NCBI RefSeq assembly: GCF_007559435.1
Contig: NZ_VMBP01000001.1
Span: forward strand, 465,406-497,405
Length of the DNA stretch: 32,000 nt
Reading direction: 5' to 3'
From: Ancylobacter moscoviensis
GTDB taxonomy: Bacteria; Pseudomonadota; Alphaproteobacteria; Rhizobiales; Xanthobacteraceae
The notes under the pieces are model-generated. The model saw only the letters and a list, made by a program, of their open reading frames with translations. It ran no database searches and was not told where the DNA came from. Each line of letters opens with the position of its first letter. The first letter of the stretch is position 1. Positions 1,403-31,815 of this stretch are shown here, piece after piece. The translations under genes and the position numbers were made by a program.

Positions 1403-3418
1403 TTACGTGGTCAATGCCTCCGCCCCTTCGATGGGCAGCGAGAGGCAGAATGTCGAACCGTTCCTGTCGCTGGCGGCCAGCGTGAGGTCGCCGCCGTGCT
1501 GGCGGGCGATCTCACGTGAAATGTAGAGGCCCAGGCCGGAGCCGTTCGCCGGTTGGCCCACGGCGCGATAGTATTTCATGAATATGAACTCGCGATCTCC
1601 GGGCGCCACGCCGGTGCCCTGATCCGTCACATGTACAAAAGCCACGCCTTGATCCGTCGACAGCCGTACCGTCACGGGACCCGGCGCGGCGGAGTATTTC
1701 ATGGCGTTCTGGATCAGGTTCTGGACCGCGATCTCCAGCAGATTCCGGTCGCCTTTCACCGTGACGCCCCCACCGTCGATAAAGCTGACCCGTCCGGCGG
1801 CATCGTCATCCAGCCCCGCTTTCACGGTGCGCAATACCTCGTTCACATCGACGGAGCCGGTCGTGGGAAAAGCTTTCTGTCCGCCATGGAGCCGGTCGCC
1901 GGCCAGGACGTTTTCGATCAGCAACGACATCCTCTTGACCGTCTGGCGGATCCGGGTGGTGCGTAGCCGGGTGTTGTCGGTACTGTCCACGGAAGACAGA
2001 TTGTCCGCAGCGGCCGAGATCACGGCCAGAGGGCCGCGAAATTCGTGCGACACCAACGCCACGAAGTCCCGTTGCTGAGCCAGGGCGTCGTTCACTGCGT
2101 CCAGGGACTGTCTGAGCTTGAGTTCGAGCAGATGGCGCCGGTCCACTTCGGCGTTGAGCGAGGTGTTTCTTTCCGCGAGTTCCGCGGTCCTTTCGCGCAC
2201 CTTGATCGTCAGATCACGTTCGGCTGCCTGGGAAATAGCGATAATGCGATTCTGTTCCGCTCGTAAACGACGCTCGGCACGCTGTCCGGCCACAAGACCC
2301 GAGAGCAGGATTAAAGCCAGGCCGAATGCCGCCGCAAATCCGGCCATCCAAAAATGCTGCCGGCGCATCGGCGCCAGATGGTCGAGCGCAGCCAGCGTAA
2401 GCAACTGGTACTGCGTATTGATTAACGGCTGACGCCGTACCAAATAGGGACGGCCGTCGATGAGCCATTGATCGGCTTGGCCCATGCCGGGCATCGCGCG
2501 CACGTCCATGGGCTCACCCGGTCCCTCGTTGCCGTCCCCAGATCGCAAGGTGTCCGGCGGCAGAAGCGCCGCCACATTGCGCAGCATGAATGGCGCGGAC
2601 GAAGCGGTGGTCACACGTCCCTGAAGGTTCACGATCAGCGAAATGTGTTGTCCTGTCAGATAGAGCGCCACATCCGGTGCGTCGAACTTTACCGTGACTG
2701 AGCCCAGCGGCATGTCGTCAATATCGTTGATACGACTGGCTACGAAGTAGGACGCCGTTTGGGTCAGGCGAGCAATGCCGAATTGTTGCCCCTTGCCGTC
2801 GCGCAGCGCGTCGATGAGGTAAGCACGACCCGTATAGATCTGCCCCACGATGTTGAAGGACTCGGCCCATTGGCTGGCGATCACCGTATCGTGCGACAGA
2901 TTGTTCAAGTAGATTCGGGCATAGCGCAGATCATTGGACAGCCGGGTCATGAAATCGCCCACCCTGCGGACCAACGGGTCGCTCGTGAACTTTGCCGCGC
3001 GCTCTTCACGCGTCAATTCGGCCAGTCCGGGCGGATCGACGCGATAGCGTTTGGCGAGCTGGACCACCTGATTCTGGTGCGCCACCATATTGGCCACGCT
3101 GGTCAATTCCGTGAACAGCCGGTCGACGACACGTGCGGTCGTTTCGGCTTCATATTCGGCGCTGGCCGCTAGGCTGTTGAGCTGCGCTGTCATGATGCGC
3201 TGCGACATCCACCAACCCAGGCCAGCCATCAACGCCAACCAAGTCGCGGCAACGCCCAGCGTCACCCGGCGCACGAAATGCCCGGAAGCAACGCCGTCGA
3301 TCGTGAGCGCTGCTGGGGTCATGAAAGACAAGCGAGGTGGCCACTGAGTGAAACCGGAGCATCGACGCCGTCCGCCGGATCCAGCGTCAGTGCCTGTGAC
3401 GTTTGTGTTGTCAAGCAT
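1403..3418 (-). CDS. Membrane sensor histidine kinase (periplasmic sensor domain, HisKA + HATPase_c)
   Basis: 671-aa ORF with an H-box FVALVSHEFRGPLAVI, an N-box LLEIAVQNLIQNAMKY, a G-box VTDQGTGV...GSGLGLYISREIARQHGG and two hydrophobic segments flanking a sensor domain of about 280 aa. The start is uncertain: it could be the ATG at 3418 or an internal Met near 3322. Confidence 0.85.
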   Translation of the reverse strand: MLDNTNVTGTDAGSGGRRRCSGFTQWPPRLSFMTPAALTIDGVASGHFVRRVTLGVAATWLALMAGLGWWMSQRIMTAQLNSLAASAEYEAETTARVVDRLFTELTSVANMVAHQNQVVQLAKRYRVDPPGLAELTREERAAKFTSDPLVRRVGDFMTRLSNDLRYARIYLNNLSHDTVIASQWAESFNIVGQIYTGRAYLIDALRDGKGQQFGIARLTQTASYFVASRINDIDDMPLGSVTVKFDAPDVALYLTGQHISLIVNLQGRVTTASSAPFMLRNVAALLPPDTLRSGDGNEGPGEPMDVRAMPGMGQADQWLIDGRPYLVRRQPLINTQYQLLTLAALDHLAPMRRQHFWMAGFAAAFGLALILLSGLVAGQRAERRLRAEQNRIIAISQAAERDLTIKVRERTAELAERNTSLNAEVDRRHLLELKLRQSLDAVNDALAQQRDFVALVSHEFRGPLAVISAAADNLSSVDSTDNTRLRTTRIRQTVKRMSLLIENVLAGDRLHGGQKAFPTTGSVDVNEVLRTVKAGLDDDAAGRVSFIDGGGVTVKGDRNLLEIAVQNLIQNAMKYSAAPGPVTVRLSTDQGVAFVHVTDQGTGVAPGDREFIFMKYYRAVGQPANGSGLGLYISREIARQHGGDLTLAASDRNGSTFCLSLPIEGAEALTT

Positions 3419-3492
3419 CCAAACAGGATGGACAGCGCAATGCTTAGATGTAATCGAATACCTTGGAAGCGCCGCACTGGAGGATGCCGTTG

Positions 3493-4206
3493 ATGATCGA
3501 TGAAGTGTCCGAACAGGGCGGTAACGCGATCTCCCCCCTCGTTTATCTTGTCGATGACGACGGGGATTTTCGCGAGGAAATGGTTTTTGGCCTATCCAGG
3601 CTGGGCCTGGACGTGCACGGCTTTCACAGTGCCGCGGCCCTCTACCGGGCCTACGCCGCCAAGCCCTCCGACATCGTCATTCTCGACATTGGTCTGGACG
3701 GCGAGGATGGTCTGTCCATCGCGGCCCATTTGCGGGCTTCGCAATCGGTCGGGATCGTCATGGCGACGGCCCGAAGCTCCATAGACGACCGGGTGAATGG
3801 CCTCAAGAAGGGAGCGGACGCTTACCTCGTCAAACCCATCGATGTTCGGGAGCTTGCCGCCACCGTGGTCGCGCTCAACGAGCGCCTCGGCAGGCACCGC
3901 GCCCCTTTGCCGCCCCCAACGCCCCGATGGGCGCTGGTGGAAGGTGGCTGGGTGCTCACCGACGGCATCGGCCATCGTCTCCGCCTGACCACCTCGGAAC
4001 AATGTTTCCTGGGGCGCCTGTTCAGTGAGCGCGGCGAGACCGTAGCGCGGCACGCTCTCGTCGAAGCCCTGGGCGCCGACGTCCATGACTTTAACTACGC
4101 GCACCTTGACACCATTGCGAGCCGCCTGCGTCGAAGGGCCGAGAAAGCCAACATGCGGCTTCCTTTGCATGCCGTTCGCGGGGTGGGCTTCGCCTTCACC
4201 GACTAG
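3493..4206 (+). CDS. OmpR/PhoB-family response regulator (receiver + winged-helix output)
   Basis: The receiver carries VYLVDDD...IVILDIGLDGEDG...LVKP. The C-terminal part, LTTSEQCFLGRLF...VRGVGFAF, looks like a winged helix. It is divergent from the kinase. GGAGG at 3479-3483 favours the ATG at 3493, although the ORF is open from 3463. Confidence 0.85.
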   Translation: MIDEVSEQGGNAISPLVYLVDDDGDFREEMVFGLSRLGLDVHGFHSAAALYRAYAAKPSDIVILDIGLDGEDGLSIAAHLRASQSVGIVMATARSSIDDRVNGLKKGADAYLVKPIDVRELAATVVALNERLGRHRAPLPPPTPRWALVEGGWVLTDGIGHRLRLTTSEQCFLGRLFSERGETVARHALVEALGADVHDFNYAHLDTIASRLRRRAEKANMRLPLHAVRGVGFAFTD

Positions 4207-5291: not shown

Positions 5292-6794
5292 ATGCCTTTG
5301 AAAAGGGAATTGCGGCGCAGTTGCTCTGCGCTGGCGATTGTGTGCGTGTTGGGAATGGCCGGCCCGGTCTTCGCCCAGACGGCGTCGAACGAGGAATTAT
5401 TCAAGCTTATTCAGGAGCTTCAGACGAAGCAGAGGGCTCTTGAAAACAAGCTCGGAGCCGCAAACGGCGAAATTGCGCGGCTCAAATCTCAACAGTCAAG
5501 GAACTCGGCATTCGCCGCGGCCCCGGCGGTTGGCGTCCAGACCGGAAGCATCGATTCCGGCCCGATCGGCTTCAACCCGCCGCCTGATCCGAGACGCGCC
5601 GTCAGTACGACAAACGTGCGCGTGGAAGCGGGCGGCGGCTACAACGGAGCCGGCTTCGGCGAGGTCGGCGGCTCACTCGCCGTCCCACTCGGCGACAGAT
5701 ACGGCTTCCAGATCGATGCTCTGGGTGGCATGGCCGAGGAAAACGGCATTGCCGGCGCGGCCGCCCACCTTTTCTGGCGCGATCCCGAGGTTGGCGCGCT
5801 CGGTCTTTACGGGAGCTACCTCTACGGCACCGCAGACTGGGGCTTCGACTCCAACGGCTTTGCCAATTCCGGAATGTACGATTTCAAGGGCGGCCTTGAA
5901 GGTCAGCTCTATCTCGGACAATTCACCCTGCAGGGTATCGTCGGCGTCGAGTGGAACAATTTCGGGAGCGGGGATGCCTTTGGCTATTATGGCCAGAGCG
6001 AAGCGCGCTTCTTCGACGACATCCGGCTGGCCTGGTACGCGACAGACGACTTCAAGCTGAGCATCGGCCATCGCTATACGAACGGCGCGAATCAGCTTGT
6101 CGGCGGCCTTGAATACCTGGCCGATTTTGGAGGGGGAACGGCGGCGTCACTGTTCCTCGACGCGTCGTACAGCACCGAGCGCCCGGATTACGGCTATTAC
6201 GGCGATCATTACTCGGGCGACGACTTCACGGTCCTGGCGGGCATCCGGGTCTATTTCGGCTCGGGCAGCACGCCGGCGCCTTCGACAAGCACCGGTGGCT
6301 ACTTCTCGAAGGAGCACGGTTACATCCCGGCCAAGGCTCCCAGCCAGCCCGGTGGACGCTCGCTCAAGCAGCGGGATCGCGGCGATCTGATGCCGAGCTA
6401 TCTCGGCTTCGACGTCGGCGATCTGCCGAAGGCACGGAAGGCGGCTGTCGTCGGTCTGCCCGGTGTGCCGGGAGCGCCGGGCAATCCTGGAACGCCTGGA
6501 ACACCTGGAACACCTGGAACGCCCGGCGCTGCCGGTGCGCCCGGTTCGGACGGCACTCCCGGTACGCCCGGCAAGGACGGTCTTCCCGGTGCACCCGGTT
6601 CGAACGGTGATCCCGGCGCCCCCGGTGCGCCCGGCAAGGATGGTCTTCCCGGGACCCCCGGTTCGGACGGTCTCCCCGGTACACCCGGTTCGAGCGGCGA
6701 GCCCGGTACGCCCGGTCCGGAAGGGTCCCCCGGCGTCCCGGGCAGTCCTGGCCCGTCCGGTCCCCCCGGCCCTCCCGGACCTCCCGGTCCCTGA
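5292..6794 (+). CDS. Secreted chimeric protein: signal peptide, short coiled coil, Omp25/31-like beta-barrel region, linker, C-terminal collagen-like triple-helix repeat
   Basis: 500-aa ORF. The signal peptide [30 protein letters not shown] is followed by the heptad-like [35 protein letters not shown]. Alternating amphipathic strands follow ([76 protein letters not shown]). The protein ends in 113 aa of perfect G-X-Y. Confidence 0.8.
6453..6791 (+). repeat. Collagen-like G-X-Y repeat-coding tract (37 uninterrupted triplets + GP), with 9-bp near-tandem units
   Basis: [34 protein letters not shown]...[11 protein letters not shown] has Gly at every third residue with no interruption. At the DNA level, ggaacgcct/ggaacacct/ggaacacct/ggaacgccc lies around 6489-6524. 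Confidence 0.9.
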
Positions 6795-9763: not shown

Positions 9764-11359
9764 GTGCCGCGTGAGGATGGAGCATTGAAAGGGCAACTCT
9801 CGAAGCCAAAACGTAAGGTCGATGATGATGCCGGCAACGATATTGCCGCCGTCGCCTACGTGCGCATGTCGACGGACCATCAGAAGTACTCGACGGAGAA
9901 CCAACTCGACGTCATCAAGAAGTATGCTGTAGCGCGTGGTCTGACGATTTTGCACGTCTTCGAGGACTCCGGACGAAGTGGTCTTCGTCTCGATGGACGG
10001 GAGGCGCTGCAAAGCCTGATGGCCGAGGTCACATCCGGTCACGCCGGATTCTCAGCGATACTTGTCTACGACGTGAGTCGCTGGGGCCGCTTCCAGGACG
10101 CGGACGAAGGCGCCTATCATGAGCACATCTGCTCCCGCGCCGGCATTCGGGTTCACTATTGCGGGGAGCAGTTCGAGAACGACGGTAGCATCGGTTCCAA
10201 TCTGCTGAAAACCGTCAAGCGCGTTATGGCGGGCGAGTACAGTCGCGAGCTTTCAGTCAAGGTATTTGCGGGCCAATGCCGCTTGGTCGAACTCGGATTT
10301 CGGCAGGGCGGTACGCCAGGCTACGGCCTGCGCCGTGTGTTGATCGACGAGCACGGCAACACCAAGGGCGAACTTGGGCGAGGCGATCGAAAAAGCCTTC
10401 AGACCGACCGTGTCGTGCTGATTCCAGGACCGACCGAGGAGGTCGACACTGTCCAGCGGATGTATCGCTTGTTCGTGCATGAGGGGCGATCCGAGAGAGA
10501 AATCGCGGCTGCACTGAACGCTGACGGGATCATAACGGACTTCAGCCGGCCGTGGACGCGGGCGGCGGTTCATCAAGTCCTGACCAACGAAAAATACATC
10601 GGCAATAACGTCTACAACAAGGTCTCGTTCAAGCTGAAGCAACGGCGCGTCGTCAATCCGAGAGAGATGTGGATCCGGGCTGAAGGCGCGTACTCGCCGG
10701 TCGTCGATCAGGCGCTTTTCGAGCGCGCACGCGCGATCATTGACGCGCGCAGCCGGCACTATTCCGACGAAGAGCTGCTGGCGATGCTCCGAGCCCTGCT
10801 CGAAGAATATGGCAGCCTGTCGGGCATCGTGATCGACGAGCACGACGACATGCCGTCGTCGAGCGCATATCGGTATCGCTTCGGCAGCCTGCTGCGAGCC
10901 TACGAGTTGATCGGCTACGAGCCCGATCGCGACTACCGCTACATCGAAGTCAACCGCGCCTTGCGCGAGGCGCATCCGCAGGTCGTCGCGGACGTTATGG
11001 CCGGAATTGCCGCGGCAGGCGGGCGGTCCGAGCGAGATCCCATCAGTGATCTGATCCGCGTGAATGACGAATTCACGGCTTCGATTGTCATCGCGCGCTG
11101 CTGTGAAACCCAGACGGGATCGTTGCGATGGCGAATCCGGCTCGACGTCGGTCTCGTCCCGGACATCACGATTGCGGTCAGGATGAACGAGGAGAACAAG
11201 GCGCCCCTCGACTACTACGTTCTGCCAGGCATCGACATGAGCCTGCCACGCCTTCGTCTGGCCCATCAGAATGGGTTGGCGCTCGATGCCTATCGCTTTG
11301 AAACGCTCGATTTCTTCTATGCGCTGGCCGGGCGGGCCTATTTTTCGGAGGCGGCTTGA
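9764..11359 (+). CDS. Large serine recombinase (resolvase catalytic domain + recombinase domain)
   Basis: The catalytic context AVAYVRMSTDHQ, then VYDVSRWGR, and a recombinase-domain pattern (GGTPGYGL...VQRMYRLFVHEGRSEREIAAALNADGIIT...W...VHQVLTNEKYIGN) are all present. No CxxC zinc ribbon was seen in the C-terminal third. The start is GTG 9764 or TTG 9785. Confidence 0.9.
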   Translation: MPREDGALKGQLSKPKRKVDDDAGNDIAAVAYVRMSTDHQKYSTENQLDVIKKYAVARGLTILHVFEDSGRSGLRLDGREALQSLMAEVTSGHAGFSAILVYDVSRWGRFQDADEGAYHEHICSRAGIRVHYCGEQFENDGSIGSNLLKTVKRVMAGEYSRELSVKVFAGQCRLVELGFRQGGTPGYGLRRVLIDEHGNTKGELGRGDRKSLQTDRVVLIPGPTEEVDTVQRMYRLFVHEGRSEREIAAALNADGIITDFSRPWTRAAVHQVLTNEKYIGNNVYNKVSFKLKQRRVVNPREMWIRAEGAYSPVVDQALFERARAIIDARSRHYSDEELLAMLRALLEEYGSLSGIVIDEHDDMPSSSAYRYRFGSLLRAYELIGYEPDRDYRYIEVNRALREAHPQVVADVMAGIAAAGGRSERDPISDLIRVNDEFTASIVIARCCETQTGSLRWRIRLDVGLVPDITIAVRMNEENKAPLDYYVLPGIDMSLPRLRLAHQNGLALDAYRFETLDFFYALAGRAYFSEAA

Positions 11360-15468: not shown

Positions 15469-18400
15469 TCAGAGCGTGCTTGTGATTTCGGCGCTTCCGC
15501 CCGGACCGAAGACGCGCGAGACCTGCGCCACGCGCCATTTGAGCGTCGCCGGCTGCGCCCCGAAATCCGCGACCTGCTGGGCCGCCGTGTAGAGAAGGTT
15601 CGCGCTCGTCACCCGCGTCGCCCGGAGCACGGTCGATCCGTTGAGGATCGCAACGTCGTATTCCTCGGCCTCTTCGCCGAGTGGAACCTCGGCAAACCAG
15701 GAATCGCCGCCGATGCGGCTGCGCCGGATCCAAGAGAGGCGCACATCGCCTCCGGTTTCGCGGCTGGCCCTCAGATGAACCGGCGTGAATGGCTTCAGGC
15801 CGCGTCCGCCATTGGCGAAGGGCAGCGACAGCGCATGATCGCCGGCGGGCCCTTCCGGCACGGGCGCCCCCTTGTAGGCGATCGTCAACCCGAGCCGCGA
15901 AACCGAGAACGTGGGGCGCACCTGCCGGGCGGGGTCGAGCATGATGAAGCGCGATCCGGCCGGATGGGTGACGACCTCGCCCTCGGTGCCGCGCTGGCCG
16001 CGCAGGAGGCGCGAGAGGCGATAGCGCCCGGCGGCAATCAACTCGGCAGTCGCGAACTGGACGATCTCGTTGCCGATCAGCGCCGCGTTCGATCCCGCCA
16101 GCACCCGCTCGTCGGGCAGAGATTGCAGTGCGCCGTGGTCGAGCTGAACCTCGACGCTGTTCCCGCGATCCCAAATCCAGACCGGCCCGGAAGACAGAGT
16201 GGTCACTGTCACCCCCATGGTCGAGGCAAGCGTCGCCACGGTTGCCGAAACATAGTCGAGACCGTCGGCGGTCGGCTGAAAGAGGCTGGCGCCCCGGAAC
16301 CGCCCACCGCCGAGCGGACATGCCGCCATGTAGAAGGACGGCGATGATGCCTCGTGCGCATCAATGAGGATGGGCATATCGAGAAGCTCGATGCGCACCG
16401 GTGAGACGGGCTCGGGGGCGGCAGGTGGCAGGCTCCCCGACCCTGTCGGCGTCGAGACGAAATCCGGATTACCGCCATCGGTGGCCTGGCCGCGCACCAG
16501 CACGAGGCCGGGCTTGCCAAAGGTGACCGAGGTGACACGGTATCGCCGCAGCGCACCGTCGACCGGCACCTCGACAACGTCGGTCGGGTCAATCTTGAGC
16601 CCTCGGGTTGGCAGGCGAAGATCGATTGCCTCGCGTCCCTGCCACATCTCGCGCAACGCCCGCTGCCCGATGGTTTGCGCCTGCTCGACCGAAAGCACGA
16701 TCGGCAAAGAGAAGGTCGTCACGCTGTCGGAGCGGCCGACCTGCTTGCGGATGGTGACGGTCGAGGACTGATAGTCGCGCCCCTCGTCGATGTGGACGAC
16801 ATCGATGGCGATGGGCAACTCGGTATCCTGCGTGCGCTCGATTTTCACCCGTGAGCGATCGCTGTCGCTGTCCGAGGCGCCAAGATCTTCAGCATCGATC
16901 GCTACGATGCCACTGCCGCCGCGCTTGACGAAGACGAGCTTGCCGTCGCGCTCGACACAATCGAAGAAGTAGGCCGTCTGAAGCACCGCGATCATGTCGC
17001 GGATCGATTTGCGTTCGGTCACCACATAGCCGACGACCTCGTCATCAAGCGCCGAGGCATCGAACTCGGATGCAAGCAACCCCGCACGCAGGCATAGATC
17101 GCCGACGATGTCGGAGAGTCGCATGTTGCCAATCTTTCCGTTGATCCAGTGACCGAGCCGGTAGTTCGCCCCGTCGCTCCAGACATTCGATAGCGTCGGG
17201 AACCATGGATAGGGCCGCGCGTCCCAACACCAGACGAAGCGTCTGGCCAGCATCGGTCCACCATAGGCGGGCGAGACCGGGTTGTTGGCCGGGTCGCGCC
17301 AGTATTCCTCCGTCGCCTCGAGCGCGGCGCGTTGGACGACACGGTCGACCGCGCCCGTCGAATAGTAGGGCGCGAAGCTCTCGACCGATTTCGGGTCGAT
17401 GAAGACGTTCGGCTGGTTGGTGGCGCAGTTCACCGTCGGAAAGCCGATCTCCGTGAACCAGATCGGCTTGGCGCGCGGCGTCCAATCCGTCGGCGATCCA
17501 GTCGGGACGCCGGCGACCCTTGGGATGTGAGTGTTCTCCCACCACCAGCGCAGCGCCTTGATCGCCCAGAAGGGCTCAGAGATCGGCGACCGGATCGGCG
17601 CAAGCCCACGCCGGTCGAGATCGCGGTCGGAGGGGCTCGCATAGTAGTAGTCGACGAGTTCACCGCCCTGCCAGCCGGCCTTGATCGCTTCCTTGTCCTG
17701 GACAGCGCGCGGCGCGTCAGTCAGCGGGAAATAGGCGTCGATCCCGACGACATCGATACTCGGATCGGCCCAGAGTTCATCGAGCGGGAAATCGACATCG
17801 CCGCCGCCACGGTCGTGGTAGCGATATTCCGACCAGTCGGCGCAATAGGTCACCTGGCAGGCAGAGCCGAGACGGCTCTTCGCCTCTGCGGCGATCTGCT
17901 TCCAATAGGCCACGGCTGGATAAGCTCCGCCGGCGTCCCGGATGCGATTGAGGGCGACCATTTCCGAACCGATCGCAAAGCCATCGACACCGCCTGCCTG
18001 CTCGCAGAGCGTCATTCCGTGCCGGATGAGCCGCAGATATCCATCGGCACGGGTGAAGAAGCCGGGCACGTCCGCGGCGGTGCCGGTGATGCGCCCGCGC
18101 CACGGAAAAGGCGCCGGATCGGGCGGCGGGATGTCCATCAGGATGAACGGGTAGAACAGAACCTTCAGGCCGCGCGCCTTCAGGTCCTGAATCGCGCGCA
18201 CAACGGCGCCGTCGGCGATCGTCCCGCCATAATAGAGGCCGAGCGAACCGTCGGGATGGGTATAGGACGAGACCATCGGCCAATGCGGCAGGCCGGAGAT
18301 CCCACCATCCATGCCGAAGAGCGGACGGCCGATGCCGGCGACGCTCCAGACATGAGGGCGGCTCTCCGGCACCTGATCGGCATAGACGCCCGTCTCGCAT

Positions 18401-19317
18401 TCCGGGCGCAACGAACAGGTCGCGACATCGAGCGACGTGCCAAACCAAGCATAGACCAGCGAGATCCATTCGACGTTCGGCAGTTCGCGCTGCAGGTTGT
18501 CGATTGCGACCGAGAAGTCGGCGCGCTTCTGGCCGGCATGGGCGTTGATCGCCGCCTTGAAACCGCTGCCCGCACCATGCCGGTTCGAGAACACGACGTC
18601 CGGATCGTAGGCGAACTCGCCCGATGCCGGGATGAGGCATAGGCTCTCGACGAGATGGCGCGCATCCGACGTGCCGGCGGGTGATCCGCGAAACACCTCG
18701 ATCTCGAAGTTCGGAAAGCGGTTGCCGAAGGCGGTGAGGTGGAGATTTTCGAGAACGACATAGGCCGTGCCGCGGAACGCCGGCGTGCGGTCTGCGCCTT
18801 CGACCGCCTGGATCAGCGGATCGGGGCCTTGCGCCTCGTCGCCATAGTAGATGCGGATTTCGTCGATGTGGTCGGAATCGATCGGCTGGCCGTCGACCCA
18901 GATGCGGTAGACCGAGGTCAACGGTCCTTCGCCAAGCCCCAGCGCCACATCGGCATAGTAGTGGTAGCTGGTCGTGACGACGGTCTGCGATCCGCCGCCG
19001 CCTTTGCCGCCGCCACCGACCGTTTCGGTGGTCGTGCGCACCTCCTCACGGATGCCGCGCGCCCAGATGATGTTGGCCGGGATCCGCCCTCGGCCATAGA
19101 CGTTCGGCCGGACTTGCCCGTAGGCCGATCCCGAGAGCCGGACATCGGTGACCTTGCCTTCTTCCCGCTTCTGACGGTTGGTCTGTGGGCCGAACAGCTG
19201 CTGGTCGAGGATGCCGCCGATGGTCGCGCCAAACAGCGCGCCGAGACCCTGGCCGAAGGCTCCGCCCACCGCCTGGCCGAGCGCGCCGCCCGCCAGCGTG
19301 AGTACGAGCTGGGCCAT
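15469..19317 (-). CDS. Host-specificity / baseplate 'megatron' protein (RcGTA g15-like, with TIM-barrel-like glycoside hydrolase region)
   Basis: 1282 aa. The Gly-rich N-terminus MAQLVLTLAGGALGQAVGG, then TTTETVGGGGKGGGG, QGPDPLIQAVEG, the large central domain and the position after the g12/g13/g14-like genes all match g15-type proteins. Confidence 0.9.
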   Translation of the reverse strand: MAQLVLTLAGGALGQAVGGAFGQGLGALFGATIGGILDQQLFGPQTNRQKREEGKVTDVRLSGSAYGQVRPNVYGRGRIPANIIWARGIREEVRTTTETVGGGGKGGGGSQTVVTTSYHYYADVALGLGEGPLTSVYRIWVDGQPIDSDHIDEIRIYYGDEAQGPDPLIQAVEGADRTPAFRGTAYVVLENLHLTAFGNRFPNFEIEVFRGSPAGTSDARHLVESLCLIPASGEFAYDPDVVFSNRHGAGSGFKAAINAHAGQKRADFSVAIDNLQRELPNVEWISLVYAWFGTSLDVATCSLRPECETGVYADQVPESRPHVWSVAGIGRPLFGMDGGISGLPHWPMVSSYTHPDGSLGLYYGGTIADGAVVRAIQDLKARGLKVLFYPFILMDIPPPDPAPFPWRGRITGTAADVPGFFTRADGYLRLIRHGMTLCEQAGGVDGFAIGSEMVALNRIRDAGGAYPAVAYWKQIAAEAKSRLGSACQVTYCADWSEYRYHDRGGGDVDFPLDELWADPSIDVVGIDAYFPLTDAPRAVQDKEAIKAGWQGGELVDYYYASPSDRDLDRRGLAPIRSPISEPFWAIKALRWWWENTHIPRVAGVPTGSPTDWTPRAKPIWFTEIGFPTVNCATNQPNVFIDPKSVESFAPYYSTGAVDRVVQRAALEATEEYWRDPANNPVSPAYGGPMLARRFVWCWDARPYPWFPTLSNVWSDGANYRLGHWINGKIGNMRLSDIVGDLCLRAGLLASEFDASALDDEVVGYVVTERKSIRDMIAVLQTAYFFDCVERDGKLVFVKRGGSGIVAIDAEDLGASDSDSDRSRVKIERTQDTELPIAIDVVHIDEGRDYQSSTVTIRKQVGRSDSVTTFSLPIVLSVEQAQTIGQRALREMWQGREAIDLRLPTRGLKIDPTDVVEVPVDGALRRYRVTSVTFGKPGLVLVRGQATDGGNPDFVSTPTGSGSLPPAAPEPVSPVRIELLDMPILIDAHEASSPSFYMAACPLGGGRFRGASLFQPTADGLDYVSATVATLASTMGVTVTTLSSGPVWIWDRGNSVEVQLDHGALQSLPDERVLAGSNAALIGNEIVQFATAELIAAGRYRLSRLLRGQRGTEGEVVTHPAGSRFIMLDPARQVRPTFSVSRLGLTIAYKGAPVPEGPAGDHALSLPFANGGRGLKPFTPVHLRASRETGGDVRLSWIRRSRIGGDSWFAEVPLGEEAEEYDVAILNGSTVLRATRVTSANLLYTAAQQVADFGAQPATLKWRVAQVSRVFGPGGSAEITSTL

Positions 19318-19320
19318 GGA

Positions 19321-19956
19321 TCAGGTCACAACTTCGAAGGAGAGCTGGGGAAGCCGGTTGCCGTAGGGTGTGATGTGCAAGCGTTCGAGGACGACATAGG
19401 CGAGCCCGCGATAGGCCGGTGTGTTCGCCACGCCCTCGACCGCTTGGATCAGGGGATCCGGCCCCTGTGTGTTCGAGCCGGTGTGGACGCGCATGTCCCC
19501 GACATGGGCTGGATCAAACACATTGCCGTCGGCGAAGGCGCGCGGCACCGAGGCGATCGGCCCCTGGCAGAGCCCGACCGCCACGTCGCAATAGTAGTGG
19601 TATTCCACGGTCGTTGTCGTCGTGCTGCCACCGCCGCCGCCCTTGCCGCCGCCGCCGACCGTCTCGGTCGTGGTGCGTGTCTCCTCTTCGAAACCGCGCA
19701 TCCAGATGATGTTCGAGGAAAGGCGCCCCTTGCCGTAAAGCGCCGGGATCACGCTTCCATAGCTCGACGACTGGACGCGCAGATCCTGTAGCCGCGCCCC
19801 GTAGATCGTCTGATCGGGCGTGCCCGAGCCGAAGATCTGCTGGTCGACCATGCCCCCGACATAGCCGCCGATCGCGCCGCCAATGGCGCCCCCGATGCCG
19901 GGCAGCAGCAGATTGCCGAGGACGTAGCCGCCGATGGTGAGGACGATGCGGGCCAT
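19321..19956 (-). CDS. Stand-alone paralog of the g15 N-terminal domain (211 aa)
   Basis: It aligns end to end with residues 1 to about 212 of the downstream 1282-aa protein. Shared blocks are DQQ[IL]FG, NIIW.RG, RTTTETVGGGGKGGGG, YHYY.DVA.GL, QGPDPLIQAVEG, AYVVLE.LH and GNR.P. Its stop TGA lies 3 nt before the g15 ATG. Confidence 0.8.
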   Translation of the reverse strand: MARIVLTIGGYVLGNLLLPGIGGAIGGAIGGYVGGMVDQQIFGSGTPDQTIYGARLQDLRVQSSSYGSVIPALYGKGRLSSNIIWMRGFEEETRTTTETVGGGGKGGGGGSTTTTTVEYHYYCDVAVGLCQGPIASVPRAFADGNVFDPAHVGDMRVHTGSNTQGPDPLIQAVEGVANTPAYRGLAYVVLERLHITPYGNRLPQLSFEVVT

Positions 19957-20000
19957 GCTAGGAAGAGGGTTAGATTGAGTTGATATGGAGAATGTGAGCG

Positions 20001-20708
20001 GTGGAGCCGCAGCTTTACATGTGGTCTGGAACGCGTGACCTATTCCTGAGACGGCACAGGTTTTTCGTCGACCAGGTCAAGGTGCGGGTGCTCTCACAGT
20101 TTCAAACGATCGAGGCCGACGCCGAGGCATACAGCGAGTCAGAGTATGACAGGCTCGCGTCACTCCCAGGGGATGAGAACAGCGACATGGCTGATGTCGC
20201 CGAGGCTGCCAACGACCGCGGCCAGGAGTTCTATGGCCTTCTTCACGATATGAAGAAGCAAATGATGTTGGCCGCGCTCGCAGCCATGTATCACCAGTGG
20301 GACAAGGATCTTCGCGATTTCATCGAACGTGAGCTCGTGCACTATTACGAAGGAAAGGCCGTTGCCGATCTCGTTTGGAAGCAGGACGTCGGGAAAATCT
20401 TTGACCTGCTCAGAGAGTTTGGATGGGATTGTCGGGCCAGCTCCTTCTTCGACCGAATCGAGGCCTGCCGCCTCATCGTCAACGTCTATAAGCATGGGAA
20501 AGGTCGATCCCTTGACGACCTCGCTCGCTCCTTTCCTCAATATCTAAATCATCCGTTCGTCAGCTTGGCCGAGAAGCCCTCGTTCGCCGCCGACTTTCTC
20601 GATTATGAGTGGGTTGAGATCTCAGACGATCAATTTGACGAGATGGCGAAAGCCATTTCCTGGTTCTGGGAGGAGTTCCCTGAGCGCCTTTTTCTGAAAG
20701 TGAGTTAA
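20001..20708 (+). CDS. Orphan all-alpha protein encoded opposite to the tail operon (moron-like, function unknown)
   Basis: 235-aa ORF, starting at GTG 20001 or at ATG 20019 (MWSGTRD). Its GC content is visibly lower than that of the flanks. No family was recognised, and it carries only a non-canonical HEPN-like stretch, ACRLIVNVYKHGKG. Confidence 0.65.
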   Translation: MEPQLYMWSGTRDLFLRRHRFFVDQVKVRVLSQFQTIEADAEAYSESEYDRLASLPGDENSDMADVAEAANDRGQEFYGLLHDMKKQMMLAALAAMYHQWDKDLRDFIERELVHYYEGKAVADLVWKQDVGKIFDLLREFGWDCRASSFFDRIEACRLIVNVYKHGKGRSLDDLARSFPQYLNHPFVSLAEKPSFAADFLDYEWVEISDDQFDEMAKAISWFWEEFPERLFLKVS

Positions 20709-21148
20709 CCATCGGAGCCGTTCATGATGCCCGGCAGCCGAAAGGCATGCCTAAGCTTCGGCCGCCAGAAGTCCGAGAAGGCGTGTTGAACCACGCGCCC
20801 GGCTTCCTGGTAGCAGTGGATCAACCCGCCTTCGAGCGTGAGAAACGCGCAATGATGCGCAGGGCCTTTGCCGGCGCCGAAGAGCAGGATGTCGGCGGGC
20901 AGTGCATCGGCCGAGTCGATCTCTTCGGCGACGGCTTTGAAGCCGAGATACATGCGCGGCTCGGCGCGGTAGAGATGCCAAGTCGGTGTGTAGTCGAGCG
21001 GAATATCGACCTTGCCCATGAACGGTTCGGCGACGCCACGGATGAAGCCGATGCAGTCGCACCCCACTCCCTTAGCGGCGGCTTGGTGGTGCCAGGGCGT
21101 GCCAAGCCATGTGCGGGCCTCGGCGAGGACGTCGTCGCGGGTGAACAT
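20705..21148 (-). CDS. NlpC/P60-family peptidase (RcGTA g14-like)
   Basis: WLGTPWHHQAAAKGVGCDCIGFIRGV gives the catalytic Cys context, with HHCAFL and the rest following. A 1-nt TGATG overlap links it to the upstream hub gene. Confidence 0.9.
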   Translation of the reverse strand: MFTRDDVLAEARTWLGTPWHHQAAAKGVGCDCIGFIRGVAEPFMGKVDIPLDYTPTWHLYRAEPRMYLGFKAVAEEIDSADALPADILLFGAGKGPAHHCAFLTLEGGLIHCYQEAGRVVQHAFSDFWRPKLRHAFRLPGIMNGSDG

Positions 21149-21987
21149 CAGTCACGCACCGGATAGCTGAAAACCTTGTCATTGCCGGGGATGTGCGGCT
21201 CGCCCCGGAAGTTCAGGACGTTGGAGAAGCGGCTGTGGCAGGTCTCAATGGTCTTGTCACACCCGGCGACGAGGCGGACCTGGTCCCCGGTGGCAATCAG
21301 TCGGGACATCGGTGTGAAGAGCGTCACCGACTGCCCGATCTGGGACAGGATCTCGGTCGCTGCCCCGGCATTTGCGCCGGTGAGGAAGGTGCAGATGCCG
21401 AACGTGTAGAAGCCCGACGAGCGCGCCGTCGGCACAGTAAACGTGTCGCCGGACGCGACCGCCGAGATGGTGAGCGTGTCGGTGAGCGGCACGAGGTCCA
21501 CGGTGCATTCGGCCGATCCGAGATCGGTGCGGCAGAGCCGCGAATAGAGCTGGCCGGAGGTCTGCTGGAGCCGATTGGCGATGCCCCGCACTTCGGCTGA
21601 AAAGCGCTGATCCGCGCGCTTTACCTCGCCGAGCCAACCGCGACGCAGCAGGACGTGCCCTTGTGCGAGGTTTGCCCAATTGACCAGCATGATGTCGATG
21701 CGCGCGCCATCGAAGCGTCCCGCCGTCAAGTCCTCGGGCTTCAGGGCGTCATCGTCGAGAAAACCGTCGACATCGAGGTTGTCGACGGAGAGGTCGGCGC
21801 CGGACTTGATCGCGGAGGGCAGAAAGCCGGTCGAGGCGACGTAGTTGAGGCCGAGATAGGCGATGTCCTGATCGTGGTCAGTGAAGCCGCGCACCCAGCC
21901 GTCGGCGCGTTCGAGACGCCAGAGGCAGGCAAGCGTCGTGACCTCGCCGTCGAGATGAGCGGCAAGGCCGGAACTCATGGTCTTCAT
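21148..21987 (-). CDS. Tail hub protein, DUF2163 + BR0599-type C-terminal domain (RcGTA g13-like)
   Basis: Start at the ATG at 21987 (MKTMSSGLAAHLDGEVTTLACLWRLERADGWVRGFTDHDQDI). The C-terminus reads GDQVRLVAGCDKTIETCHSRFSNVLNFRGEPHIPGNDKV. Confidence 0.85.
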   Translation of the reverse strand: MKTMSSGLAAHLDGEVTTLACLWRLERADGWVRGFTDHDQDIAYLGLNYVASTGFLPSAIKSGADLSVDNLDVDGFLDDDALKPEDLTAGRFDGARIDIMLVNWANLAQGHVLLRRGWLGEVKRADQRFSAEVRGIANRLQQTSGQLYSRLCRTDLGSAECTVDLVPLTDTLTISAVASGDTFTVPTARSSGFYTFGICTFLTGANAGAATEILSQIGQSVTLFTPMSRLIATGDQVRLVAGCDKTIETCHSRFSNVLNFRGEPHIPGNDKVFSYPVRD

Positions 21988-21997
21988 GGGAAGTGGC

Positions 21998-22582
21998 TCA
22001 GGTCCTGATTTCGACGATCGGGATCGACGATATCTGCTGAAGGTGGAAGGCGGTCGCGACCACTGGCAGGTGATCGGTGTCGAAGCGGCACGGCACATCG
22101 AAGCGGAAGTCCGCATAGGGCGTGGCCCCAGGCGCGGACGGGAACGTCACCCTGCCGGTCAAGTGATCGATGGTAACGCCCATGGGCGAGCCACTGACCC
22201 GCACGATCACCGAGCCGACTTCGGGCTTGGTGATGAGACGGACGTCCTCGCCTGGTCCGCTCGGATAGCGTCGCACCAGCTGCCAGATAAGCGAGTTGGC
22301 GGTCGCGAGCATCGCCTGTCCCGCCGCTTCGAAATCCGTCCAGTCACGGAACCGGAAGCCATAGGCGCGGCCCTTGCGAGCACGGAAGAAGGCGATCACC
22401 TCGGCCATCTGCTCGCGAGTGCGGATGCCGGTGCCGATGTCGTAGCGGGCGCGTGCGGCCTGCCAGTTGATGTTGCGCTGTTCGAAGCCGGAGGCGACCG
22501 CGATGATGTCGGTCGAGTATTCCGGCCCGCCGGTCGCGCCGCGCGCGATCGCATCGGGAAACCGCACATCGTGAAAGCCCAT
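21998..22582 (-). CDS. Distal tail protein, DUF2460/TIGR02217 (RcGTA g12-like)
   Basis: MGFHDVRFPDAIARGATGGPEYSTDIIAVASGFEQRNINWQAARARYDIG matches the family N-terminal signature. The gene lies directly after the tape measure. Confidence 0.85.
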   Translation of the reverse strand: MGFHDVRFPDAIARGATGGPEYSTDIIAVASGFEQRNINWQAARARYDIGTGIRTREQMAEVIAFFRARKGRAYGFRFRDWTDFEAAGQAMLATANSLIWQLVRRYPSGPGEDVRLITKPEVGSVIVRVSGSPMGVTIDHLTGRVTFPSAPGATPYADFRFDVPCRFDTDHLPVVATAFHLQQISSIPIVEIRT

Positions 22583-29778: not shown

Positions 29779-31815
29779 TCAGGCGCCGGGATTGCGATAG
29801 AGGCCGCGCCAGTCGATCGCCTTCGCGCCAAAGTCGAGACGGCACTTGATCTCGACGCCGTCGACATCGAAGCCGTTACGGGTCTCGATATAGGCGCCCT
29901 GCTGACCTTCGAGATAGGCGTATTCGATCGTGTCGATCTGCGCCGGGTTTGCGGCGAGATACCAAGCGGTGGCGCTCGCTGCGTCGAGCCGAGGCTCGGC
30001 AATAGGGGTGAGCGTCCGGATGGATTGCGGCACGACATCGCCGGTCTTCGCCGGGACGAGGTTTTGCGCGATGATCTGCTCGGCGGTGAGTTCGAGCGCG
30101 GCCGGCACCAGCACATAAGCCGGGCGCACGTTGAGAACGGTCTTCTTGTCGAGGCCGGTCTGCTTGGCCATGGCCGTCCGACCGTCCCCAATGGCGGCAA
30201 CGCTGAGCGCTGAGGCCGGGGAAGCGAGGTTCTTATGGGTCGCGTGGAAGAGCGCGACACCATCCGCCATGTTGGCGTTTGCGGTAACGATGCCCCACAC
30301 GACGTCGCTTTCGAGCGTTGCGATCGCCGTGCCGTACATGGCGGGGATGCGGGTGAAGGCGTCGAGATCGTCGTTGATGAGGACCTGGCGGGTGATGGCG
30401 ACGACACGGCCATAAGTTTCGATGCGATAGCTCTCCTTCGACTCCGCAATGGTGCCGCGCTTGAATTCGCCACCTTCATCGACCTTCAACAGCTGGGGCG
30501 CTTCACCGATCTGGACGCGGTTCATCGCCTTGAAGTCGGTGGCGAGGACCTGCCGGCAGAAGGGCATGAACGTGCGCGGATAGACCTCGTAGGCCTGGCG
30601 CAACGTCTTGTTGGTTACTGCCGAGAGGATCTCGGGAAAGTCCGAGGCCGAATGCAGCGCGCGCGTTGCGATCTCGTCCCGCGAGAGACCGCGCACATTG
30701 ACGCCAGCCGAACTCAGCTGCTCGCGGGCGAGTTCGAGCAGCGTCATGCCGCGATATTCCCGCGCCGGATCCGTCAAAGGGAAGAGCGTCGGGGCATAGC
30801 GGTGGAGGAGCGCGTTGGCGACCGCTTCGCGGCGGGTCACCCGCTCGTCGCGGCCACCGAGCGGCACGCTAACCTGAGAGGCCACGCGCACCTTGTCTGC
30901 TTCCGCTGCCACCTTGTCGAGAATGGCGGTGCGTGCTGCATCGATGGCGACGCCGCGTTTCACCAGATCCTCGGCGAAGCCTCGATCGAGCGAGAGCCGC
31001 CCGGCAAGGTCGTAGATGGTGGCGACACGTTCACGCTCGGTGTCCCGTGCGCGCGTGGCGATCGCCTCCGTATCCGGCGCAGGCGTGGTCCTGTCCAGGA
31101 TGCGGGCGGTTTCGGCGCCACCGCTCTCGGCGGTCGCAGTATCGGTGGTTTCAATCTCGTCCATGGGGACAGGCTCCTTGCGTTGAAGGGTGGAGGCGCG
31201 GATGGGTGTTGATGGGGACGGCGCCGGCTCTGTGCGGGCATTGGCGACATCGGCCCGCGCGATCACGCAGGGGATCAGCGGCGTTCCGTCCGTGGTGTCG
31301 TGCAAGCGGAAGCCTGCTGCCGGATCGGCGCCGATCGGCACGGCGGAGATCTCGAACGGTGTCCAGTCGACAGCACGCCAAAGCTCCGGGGCTCCGGCCT
31401 GCTTGGTAACCTCGAAGCGATGGACCTGATAGCCAATCGAGACCGCTCGGATGTGCCCGGCCTCGACGTCCCGCCATACGGCCTCGGCGTCCTCGCGCTC
31501 TGAAAACCGCACGCGGGCAAGGCCGCGGCCGTTCTCGATCCTGGCGCTGCCGGGCACGACCGAACCGATCACGCTGTCGAGCGCCGAAGCGTCATGCACC
31601 TTCAGAAGAGGCGCACCGCCATTGAGGCGATCGAGCCGAACCGATTGCGGGTCCATGGCGAGTTCTTCGTCGAAGGGATCGCTGAAGAACGGATGCCGGC
31701 GGACGCGCGCGCCGGTCGACCAGATGACTTCGATGGTGCGCGCCTCCCGGTCGATAGAGGACGGCAAGAGGTCCGCCGCCCGCATGAGCGGCGGCAGGTC
31801 GATGTGACGGTTCAT
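29779..31815 (-). CDS. Prohead protease / major capsid protein fusion
   Basis: 678 aa. The N-terminal 170 aa or so resemble an HK97-type (U35) prohead protease (IEVIWSTGARV...LLKVHD...IGSVV...VEAGHIRAVSIGY). An acidic/Ala-rich scaffold-like linker follows. The C-terminal part of about 330 aa is capsid-like and ends GFDVDGVEIKCRLDFGAKAIDWRGLYRNPGA. Confidence 0.8.
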   Translation of the reverse strand: MNRHIDLPPLMRAADLLPSSIDREARTIEVIWSTGARVRRHPFFSDPFDEELAMDPQSVRLDRLNGGAPLLKVHDASALDSVIGSVVPGSARIENGRGLARVRFSEREDAEAVWRDVEAGHIRAVSIGYQVHRFEVTKQAGAPELWRAVDWTPFEISAVPIGADPAAGFRLHDTTDGTPLIPCVIARADVANARTEPAPSPSTPIRASTLQRKEPVPMDEIETTDTATAESGGAETARILDRTTPAPDTEAIATRARDTERERVATIYDLAGRLSLDRGFAEDLVKRGVAIDAARTAILDKVAAEADKVRVASQVSVPLGGRDERVTRREAVANALLHRYAPTLFPLTDPAREYRGMTLLELAREQLSSAGVNVRGLSRDEIATRALHSASDFPEILSAVTNKTLRQAYEVYPRTFMPFCRQVLATDFKAMNRVQIGEAPQLLKVDEGGEFKRGTIAESKESYRIETYGRVVAITRQVLINDDLDAFTRIPAMYGTAIATLESDVVWGIVTANANMADGVALFHATHKNLASPASALSVAAIGDGRTAMAKQTGLDKKTVLNVRPAYVLVPAALELTAEQIIAQNLVPAKTGDVVPQSIRTLTPIAEPRLDAASATAWYLAANPAQIDTIEYAYLEGQQGAYIETRNGFDVDGVEIKCRLDFGAKAIDWRGLYRNPGA

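Follow-up and report, generated by a model that had tools for sequence, protein, structure and literature searches.

In the 32,000-nucleotide window from Ancylobacter moscoviensis analysed here, the tail operon of a temperate prophage is interrupted by a reverse-oriented, compositionally foreign insertion carrying a single gene, i.e. a moron, and we regard this assignment as nearly certain. The insertion (19957-20725, 769 bp) lies between the gene for a g14-like NlpC/P60 tail peptidase and a gene for a separate g15 N-domain, hereafter g15N. Its gene (20001-20708, plus strand) encodes a 235-aa protein of a large, widespread family that we call FAM. The initial annotation, made from the letters alone, had placed a 235-aa plus-strand open reading frame (ORF) between the minus-strand g14-like peptidase and the g15 paralog, with coordinates that proved exact. 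It had also suggested a foreign moron inserted in reverse orientation into the late operon, and this was borne out by phage relatives that lack the insert.

Close relatives of the tail module were found by searching IMG/VR with the g14 and g15N proteins. Two of them, IMGVR_UViG_3300048599_000660 and IMGVR_UViG_2516653000_000016 (our loci L243 and L242), are free of the insert, and in both g14 is followed by the 211-aa g15N gene and then by a full-length g15. Their g14 proteins are 89% and 81% identical to that of the window and their g15N proteins 95% and 80%, the higher values belonging to the first-named locus. In these relatives the stop of g14 and the start of g15N overlap as TGATG. Alignment of the junctions gave base-exact boundaries: 769 extra bases stand in the window where the ancestral TGATG has its "TG". 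The insert consists of the 235-aa ORF with 44 nt upstream and 17 nt downstream of it and holds no second gene. It supplies the six new C-terminal codons of the window's g14 gene together with its stop (MNGSDG and stop, 20705-20725, minus strand), and it breaks the TGATG translational coupling of g14 and g15N. The sequence now 5′ of the g15N start reads CCUCUUCCUAGC AUG, with no Shine-Dalgarno-like purine run.

The g15N gene itself (19321-19956, minus strand), which matches only residues 1-203 of the tail-protein profile PHROG 4271, directly follows g14 in L243, L242 and about 30 other relatives and is thus native to this phage group and outside the insert. A cassette made of the 235-aa gene and g15N, which the initial annotation had considered, is thereby ruled out. 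The composition of the insert also sets it apart, as had been noted from the letters: its GC content is 0.540 and its GC content at third codon positions (GC3) 0.685, against 0.64-0.68 and 0.78-0.84 in the tail genes. The arrangement recurs at 100% identity on contigs from two independent sequencing runs.

We surveyed this site in 34 relatives with a g14 at 64% identity or more. The g14/g15N junction is contiguous in 27 of them, while the other seven carry other DNA there (907-1469 bp). In one relative the neighbouring g15N/g15 junction holds 856 extra bp with a HigB/HigA pair. The cargo intervals are 6092-7348 in L178, 6430-7342 in L181, L182 and L183, 2413-3319 in L192, 6427-7833 in L185, 6430-7898 in L193 and 7068-7923 in L191. 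Every cargo gene runs antisense to the tail operon, and most have a GC content below that of their flanks. They encode a family of 283-292 aa, a few members of which are tagged T5orf172, a 371-aa unknown with a C-terminal EVK-type motif, and small hydrophobic proteins. No junction sequence is shared between cargo types, which indicates that the insertions were independent events at a permissive site. The g14/g15N junction is therefore a recurrent moron hotspot. At the ends of the window's own insert, terminal repeats, whether inverted or direct, amount to no more than a 3-nt ATG microhomology and a chance-level repeat of 7 nt. Since terminal repeats are lacking and junctions differ among cargo types, transposon-like ends and an att-like site were ruled out.

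The inserted ORF starts with GTG. This start fits the N-termini of the homologues (M-E/Q-P-Q-L-Y), and a GGAG (19987-19990) lies 10 nt before it in the 44-nt leader that came in with the insert (19957-20000, plus strand). The same 44 bp separate the start from that of the divergent 211-aa g15N gene. At its other end the ORF runs into the convergent g14 gene (20705-21148, minus strand; assigned by Pfam), the two stops overlapping in TTAA at 20705-20708. Judged by its 165 homologues and at least 1,356 representative clusters, 20001-20708 is a real gene, far beyond a chance ORF. The AlphaFold2 (AF2) model of the protein, built on 45 homologues, is all-helical, with a predicted local distance difference test score (pLDDT) of 93.9 and a predicted template modelling score (pTM) of 0.87. 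The protein is acidic, with an isoelectric point (pI) of 4.77 and 44 Asp/Glu against 28 Lys/Arg. It is soluble, and a search for a hydrophobic segment found none (maximum 19-residue Kyte-Doolittle mean 0.59). An acidic, all-helical protein free of transmembrane segments is what had been predicted from the letters.

The description of the gene as an orphan, in contrast, has to be given up. Residues 6-227 of the 235-aa protein match positions 4-224 of the 246 in PHROG 19541, a profile of unknown function, with an E-value of 7.5e-48 (164 bits). A word-indexed search returned the 165 homologues at E<=1e-3, the closest non-identical one at 4.6e-89. A profile search enlarged the family to at least 1,356 clusters (50% identity), of which 791 have E<=1e-10. 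Its hosts are alpha-, beta- and gammaproteobacteria, with sporadic members elsewhere, and it occurs in 22 IMG/VR loci and 125 plasmid records. Translated searches (tblastn) of 50,697 deposited phage genome records gave no FAM match. Among the outlying members is one at 32% identity on a Citrobacter freundii plasmid (L245, NZ_CP056246.1, 3300-4163) and on about 100 similar Enterobacteriaceae plasmids. There it is one of a series of small hypothetical genes on the same strand, close to where the record begins in many large Citrobacter, Klebsiella and Enterobacter plasmids.

The neighbour-joining tree of the family shows three groups. The window clade has 38 members of about 234 aa, none of them linked to the YeeA(DnmA)-YeeB-YeeC genes described below, and is found in prophages, plasmids, regions resembling integrative and conjugative elements (ICE-like regions) and defence islands. 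A second solo clade, of about 256 aa, is mostly prophage-borne, and the operon clade, the largest of the family, with proteins of about 260 aa, has a few solo lineages nested inside it. Surveying the loci of homologues, as the initial annotation had proposed, led to prophages, plasmids, ICE-like regions, defence islands and YeeABC operons. It led to no other tail module: among 172 loci the window phage is alone in carrying a FAM gene there.

The neighbourhoods were compared by clustering neighbour ORFs across loci and then annotating the clusters. No recurrent partner of solo FAM genes emerged from this clustering or from Pfam and PHROG censuses. The neighbours are varied and include integrases, a DndB-like protein with a methyltransferase, a nucleotidyltransferase (NTase)-HEPN fusion, a CoiA-like nuclease, Abi_C, HEPN_AbiV, AbiEi/AbiEii, AbiJ, NYN+OST-HTH and DUF4145 proteins. 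Others are UvrD and Sno helicases, TrwB, a P22-type antirepressor, an Hdf-like antirestriction gene, phage head genes, and toxin-antitoxin (TA) and conjugation genes. The idea that several ORFs of about 260 aa upstream of FAM form one family was rejected, since they comprise DUF4145 and NYN+OST-HTH proteins, an S49 peptidase, a 273-aa CoiA-like nuclease and unknowns. Across nearly all solo loci the FAM ORF is lower in GC than its flanks. Taken together, these solo contexts, the lack of a recurrent partner, the low GC and the absence of another tail-module copy show FAM behaving as an accessory gene that stands on its own and is exchanged horizontally, carried by mobile elements and defence islands.

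The operon clade takes its name from a same-strand operon in which FAM lies between yeeA and yeeB. This setting accounts for 52 of the 80 genome loci (the best 80 of 142) and 20 of the 59 metagenome loci and occurs in alpha-, beta- and gammaproteobacteria. First comes an MmeI-like protein (about 930-950 aa) that has all five MmeI Pfam domains; FAM follows, overlapping yeeA by 4 nt, and after it come a DEAD/ResIII helicase (about 690 aa) and a T5orf172 protein (about 400 aa). YeeA(DnmA) is an MmeI-like methyltransferase without a PD-ExK domain, YeeB a DEAD helicase and YeeC a GIY-YIG/T5orf172 nuclease (PMC2731913; PMC9973331). A cluster of the YeeABC type was predicted to be a multi-subunit restriction system (Morgan 2009, PMC2731913), and yeeAB gave Vibrio crassostreae resistance to some phages (bioRxiv 10.1101/2021.05.05.442762). 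In B. subtilis dnmA, yeeB and yeeC are three adjacent genes, and an "uncharacterized protein family" is mentioned as a possible additional member of the locus in some bacteria (PMC9973331). FAM is not core to the operon: in six plasmid YeeABC loci without FAM, confirmed by tblastn, the methyltransferase, helicase and nuclease genes are directly adjacent, and in two of the six the helicase is 79% and 69% identical to the FAM-containing type. Comparison of the FAM profile with the YeeA, YeeB and YeeC domains by hhalign showed no relation, and the 32-kb window contains no match to any of the three.

Some of these operons carry further genes. At L061 (8765-9772), L063 (8750-9574) and similar loci, RhuM-family or Abi_2-like/RiboL-PSP-HEPN-like genes separate FAM from yeeB, so the yeeA/yeeB interval is a slot for hitchhiker genes. 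On chromosome 1 of Allorhizobium sp. Av2, two yeeA-FAM-yeeB-yeeC copies (L043 and L044, at about 0.05 Mb and 2.31 Mb) encode proteins that are 100% identical, which suggests that the operon rides on a repeated mobile element. In one 340-aa protein, P0186, a FAM domain (profile positions 7-183) is followed by a T5orf172/MUG113 domain at the C-terminus; this may be a fusion or a frameshift artefact.

Conservation within the family is concentrated in a few residues. Across 166 sequences and three clades R105, N161, K164, H165, G166, G168, F222, W223 and P227 are invariant. In every clade H98 and K102 are kept at 97-100% and E111 at 94-97%. A more divergent alignment of 124 sequences leaves only K164 and H165 strictly invariant, with N161, G166 and G168 above 90%. 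In the AF2 model the conserved residues map to a single face of the long helix 3 and to the C-terminal end of helix 150-165. The codons of the first cluster, H98-E111, occupy 20292-20333 (plus strand; H98, K102, R105 and E111 kept at 94-100%), and those of the second, A155-G168 (ACRLIVNVYKHGKG), occupy 20463-20504 (plus strand). Within the second cluster R157 is variable. As the same key residues are kept, solo and operon-embedded FAM proteins probably share one activity.

The function that we tentatively favour, at slightly less than even confidence, is that of a single-gene moron that benefits the host: a defence or exclusion module that acts alone, is expressed apart from the late genes and uses its conserved pocket on a nucleic acid or nucleotide. 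The expression, the defence role and the substrate are inferred parts of this reading. The link to defence comes from context: the many loci with a yeeA-FAM-yeeB-yeeC operon in which FAM is optional, the phage protection by yeeAB in Vibrio crassostreae and the FAM-T5orf172 protein P0186. In outline, a 769-bp fragment entered the tail operon at g14/g15N in reverse orientation by illegitimate recombination. The gene would be transcribed from the prophage independently of the late operon, and its reverse orientation would also keep any terminator off the late transcript. The lysogen would benefit because other phages are excluded. The basic/His cluster on two helices (H98, K102, R105 and E111; N161, K164 and H165) would form a putative active or ligand-binding site, most plausibly acting on nucleic acid or nucleotide. 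In one clade the gene has become an optional fourth member of the Yee operon, with its place between yeeA and yeeB.

Several points weigh against this picture. A scan of 19200-21300 for a sigma-70-like promoter or an intrinsic terminator found neither, other promoter types being outside the scan; the inserted DNA extends only 44 nt 5′ of the GTG start, and no conserved promoter is visible 5′ of the window-clade members. The biochemical step is guesswork that draws on residue conservation, as FAM resembles no characterised protein, fold or PADLOC model. Pfam, NCBIfam and PADLOC gave nothing significant for the window protein or distant FAM members; in PADLOC-DB v2 the window protein had no match at E<=10 and an operon-clade protein none at E<=1e-3. 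A sequence search of the PDB with the single protein and two profiles was also without a match. Foldseek with the AF2 model, another check proposed in the initial annotation, found no PDB match (best E 0.9) and no HEPN protein; its sole BFVD match is an uncharacterised Myoviridae protein (E=0.024, TM 0.46-0.49). The B. subtilis YeeABC cluster gave no protection when tested (PMC9973331). In addition, guilt by association leaves defence, anti-defence and regulation indistinguishable, the survey of genomes started from two exact motifs and kept the best 80 of 142 loci, and the tree of 166 members was built without bootstrap.

Anti-defence would turn the argument round: solo copies would be decoys or inhibitors of host systems of the YeeA-FAM-YeeB-YeeC type, for example a dominant-negative homologue or a restriction-alleviation factor. 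We consider this unlikely. It draws on the fact that the family is common to a defence operon and to its would-be targets (prophages, plasmids and ICE-like regions), on the acidity of the window protein, and on two viral loci in which an Hdf-like antirestriction gene adjoins FAM, with an antirepressor in others. However, the gene has its place antisense in a late operon rather than in an early region, the deposited phage genomes searched lack the family, and solo copies also occur in chromosomal islands beside Abi, TA and Dnd-like genes. Moreover, the conserved His/Lys/Arg/Asn cluster looks catalytic or ligand-binding, unlike a DNA mimic, and the median pI of the family, 5.2, is unremarkable. 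Rather improbable in our view is that FAM is a regulatory or adaptor subunit, meaningful only with partners such as YeeA, YeeB and YeeC, and the prophage copy a functionless passenger or relic. The 4-nt overlap with yeeA suggests co-translation, and many solo copies follow one of various nuclease or NTase genes on the same strand at a distance of less than 150 nt (CoiA, NTase-HEPN, NYN, DUF4145, AbiEii). Yet all 38 members of the window clade are solo and without a recurrent partner while keeping full length and all key residues; the YeeABC loci work as units without FAM, and the hhalign comparison relates FAM to none of their domains.

A divergent HEPN-type RNase toxin with the RLIVNVYKH helix as its R-x-H catalytic motif is very unlikely, and the initial annotation was right in declining to call the protein HEPN. 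FAM resembles the HEPN superfamily in being helical, in carrying an N-x3-H pair on a helix and in often having Abi/TA-type genes as neighbours. The spacing N161-x3-H165 counts for this option, as it fits the N...H part of the HEPN motif, which we take to be RNxxxH. One of 124 members scanned with Pfam gave a weak match to Ribonuc_2-5A (KEN), but its E-value of 0.0024 is at chance level for 124 scans. Conservation of R157 is 57% and 51% in the two solo clades against 100% in the operon clade, the spacing R157-x7-H165 departs from Rx4-6H, and where HEPN proteins have their arginine the window protein has V160, a residue that hardly varies in its clade. The AF2 model places the motif at the C-terminal end of its helix. 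The FAM profile reached hhalign probabilities of 0.16% against the KEN domain of human IRE1 (sequence verified against the PDB) and 0.2% against the Abi_2-like neighbour family. FAM differs from HEPN proteins in its non-conserved arginine and in spacing, and neither the profile comparisons nor the Foldseek search of the PDB gave a match to them. There is finally next to no chance that the ORF encodes a structural or assembly component of the tail or is spurious. Its position inside the tail module and the frequency of long chance ORFs at 65% GC would speak for this; against it stand the opposite strand, the absence from the closest relatives, the lack of any structural PHROG or Pfam match and of homologues in other tail modules, the strong family conservation and the confident fold.

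A bolder reading, which we regard as doubtful, goes further. FAM would be a new enzyme or ligand-binding fold serving as an anti-phage module by itself, with the invariant N-x2-K-H-G-x-G helix end and the conserved H-x3-K-x2-R face forming a new nucleic-acid or nucleotide active site. The minimal cassette of about 750 bp would be traded by mobile elements and captured repeatedly by defence loci, above all proteobacterial YeeABC, where it may be a second line like PrrC in type I restriction-modification (R-M) operons. Nothing so far shows an unexpected mechanism for FAM.

Late-operon morons as such are already known. Neither the cargo family nor its optional place in YeeABC nor the g14/g15N hotspot was found in the libraries and literature searched; no paper on the FAM family or a four-gene YeeABC variant turned up there, and the hotspot of the GTA (gene transfer agent)-like tail module was not located in it either. 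If the findings hold, FAM would be a compact candidate for a new single-gene defence or counter-defence function, represented by at least 1,356 clusters in Proteobacteria, plasmids and prophages. It would also be an unrecognised, frequent optional part of the poorly understood YeeA(DnmA)-YeeB-YeeC system, and the g14/g15N junction of GTA-like tail modules would be a natural cargo site for mining accessory genes.

The element that carries the insertion is a siphophage with a GTA-like tail module. A large serine recombinase (9764-11359) and host-like genes at the left end of the window mark it as a temperate prophage. Downstream of the insertion lies the full-length g15-like tail or host-specificity gene (15469-19317, minus strand; 1282 aa). 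Past g14 follow Gp84_N/BR0599 (g13-like) and DUF2460 (g12-like) genes and a 1131-aa tape measure gene. The separate 211-aa g15 N-domain copy directly upstream of a full-length g15 with its own N-domain is kept in about 30 relatives (2908-3543 and 3547-7398 in L243). As the two N-domains are about 50% identical, this points to an old duplication or split. The g13-like ORF (21148-22116, minus strand; 322 aa) overlaps the end of the g12-like gene (21998-22582, minus strand) by 119 nt. Its Pfam match begins at residue 49, and on an identical contig the gene was called with 279 aa; translation probably starts at the internal ATG near 21987. A 678-aa ORF (29779-31815) has a capsid domain only in its C-terminal 300 residues and may be a protease/scaffold-capsid fusion, and a 500-aa ORF (5292-6794) with collagen triple-helix repeats may be a tail fibre.

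Set beside known systems, the window protein shares a full-length match with PHROG 19541, which carries no functional annotation, so membership explains no more. With the YeeA-YeeB-YeeC system FAM shares a large clade encoded inside the operon. However, the window copy has no yee genes nearby, its clade never occurs in the operon, FAM is dispensable for the operon architecture, and the proteins are not homologous. PrrC and RloC occur both embedded in type I R-M operons and solo. FAM resembles them in this double life, and it resembles RhuM and Abi_2-type hitchhikers in using the same yeeA/yeeB slot, but it has no sequence or profile similarity to any of these and neither an NTPase nor an anticodon-nuclease domain. 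From phage morons and prophage defence hotspots such as lambda bor/lom and P2 old/tin, the window insert differs in its uncharacterised cargo family and in that no promoter/terminator pair was detected. What it has in common with them is foreign, independently oriented cargo in the late operon of a temperate phage, at a site where relatives hold alternative cargo.

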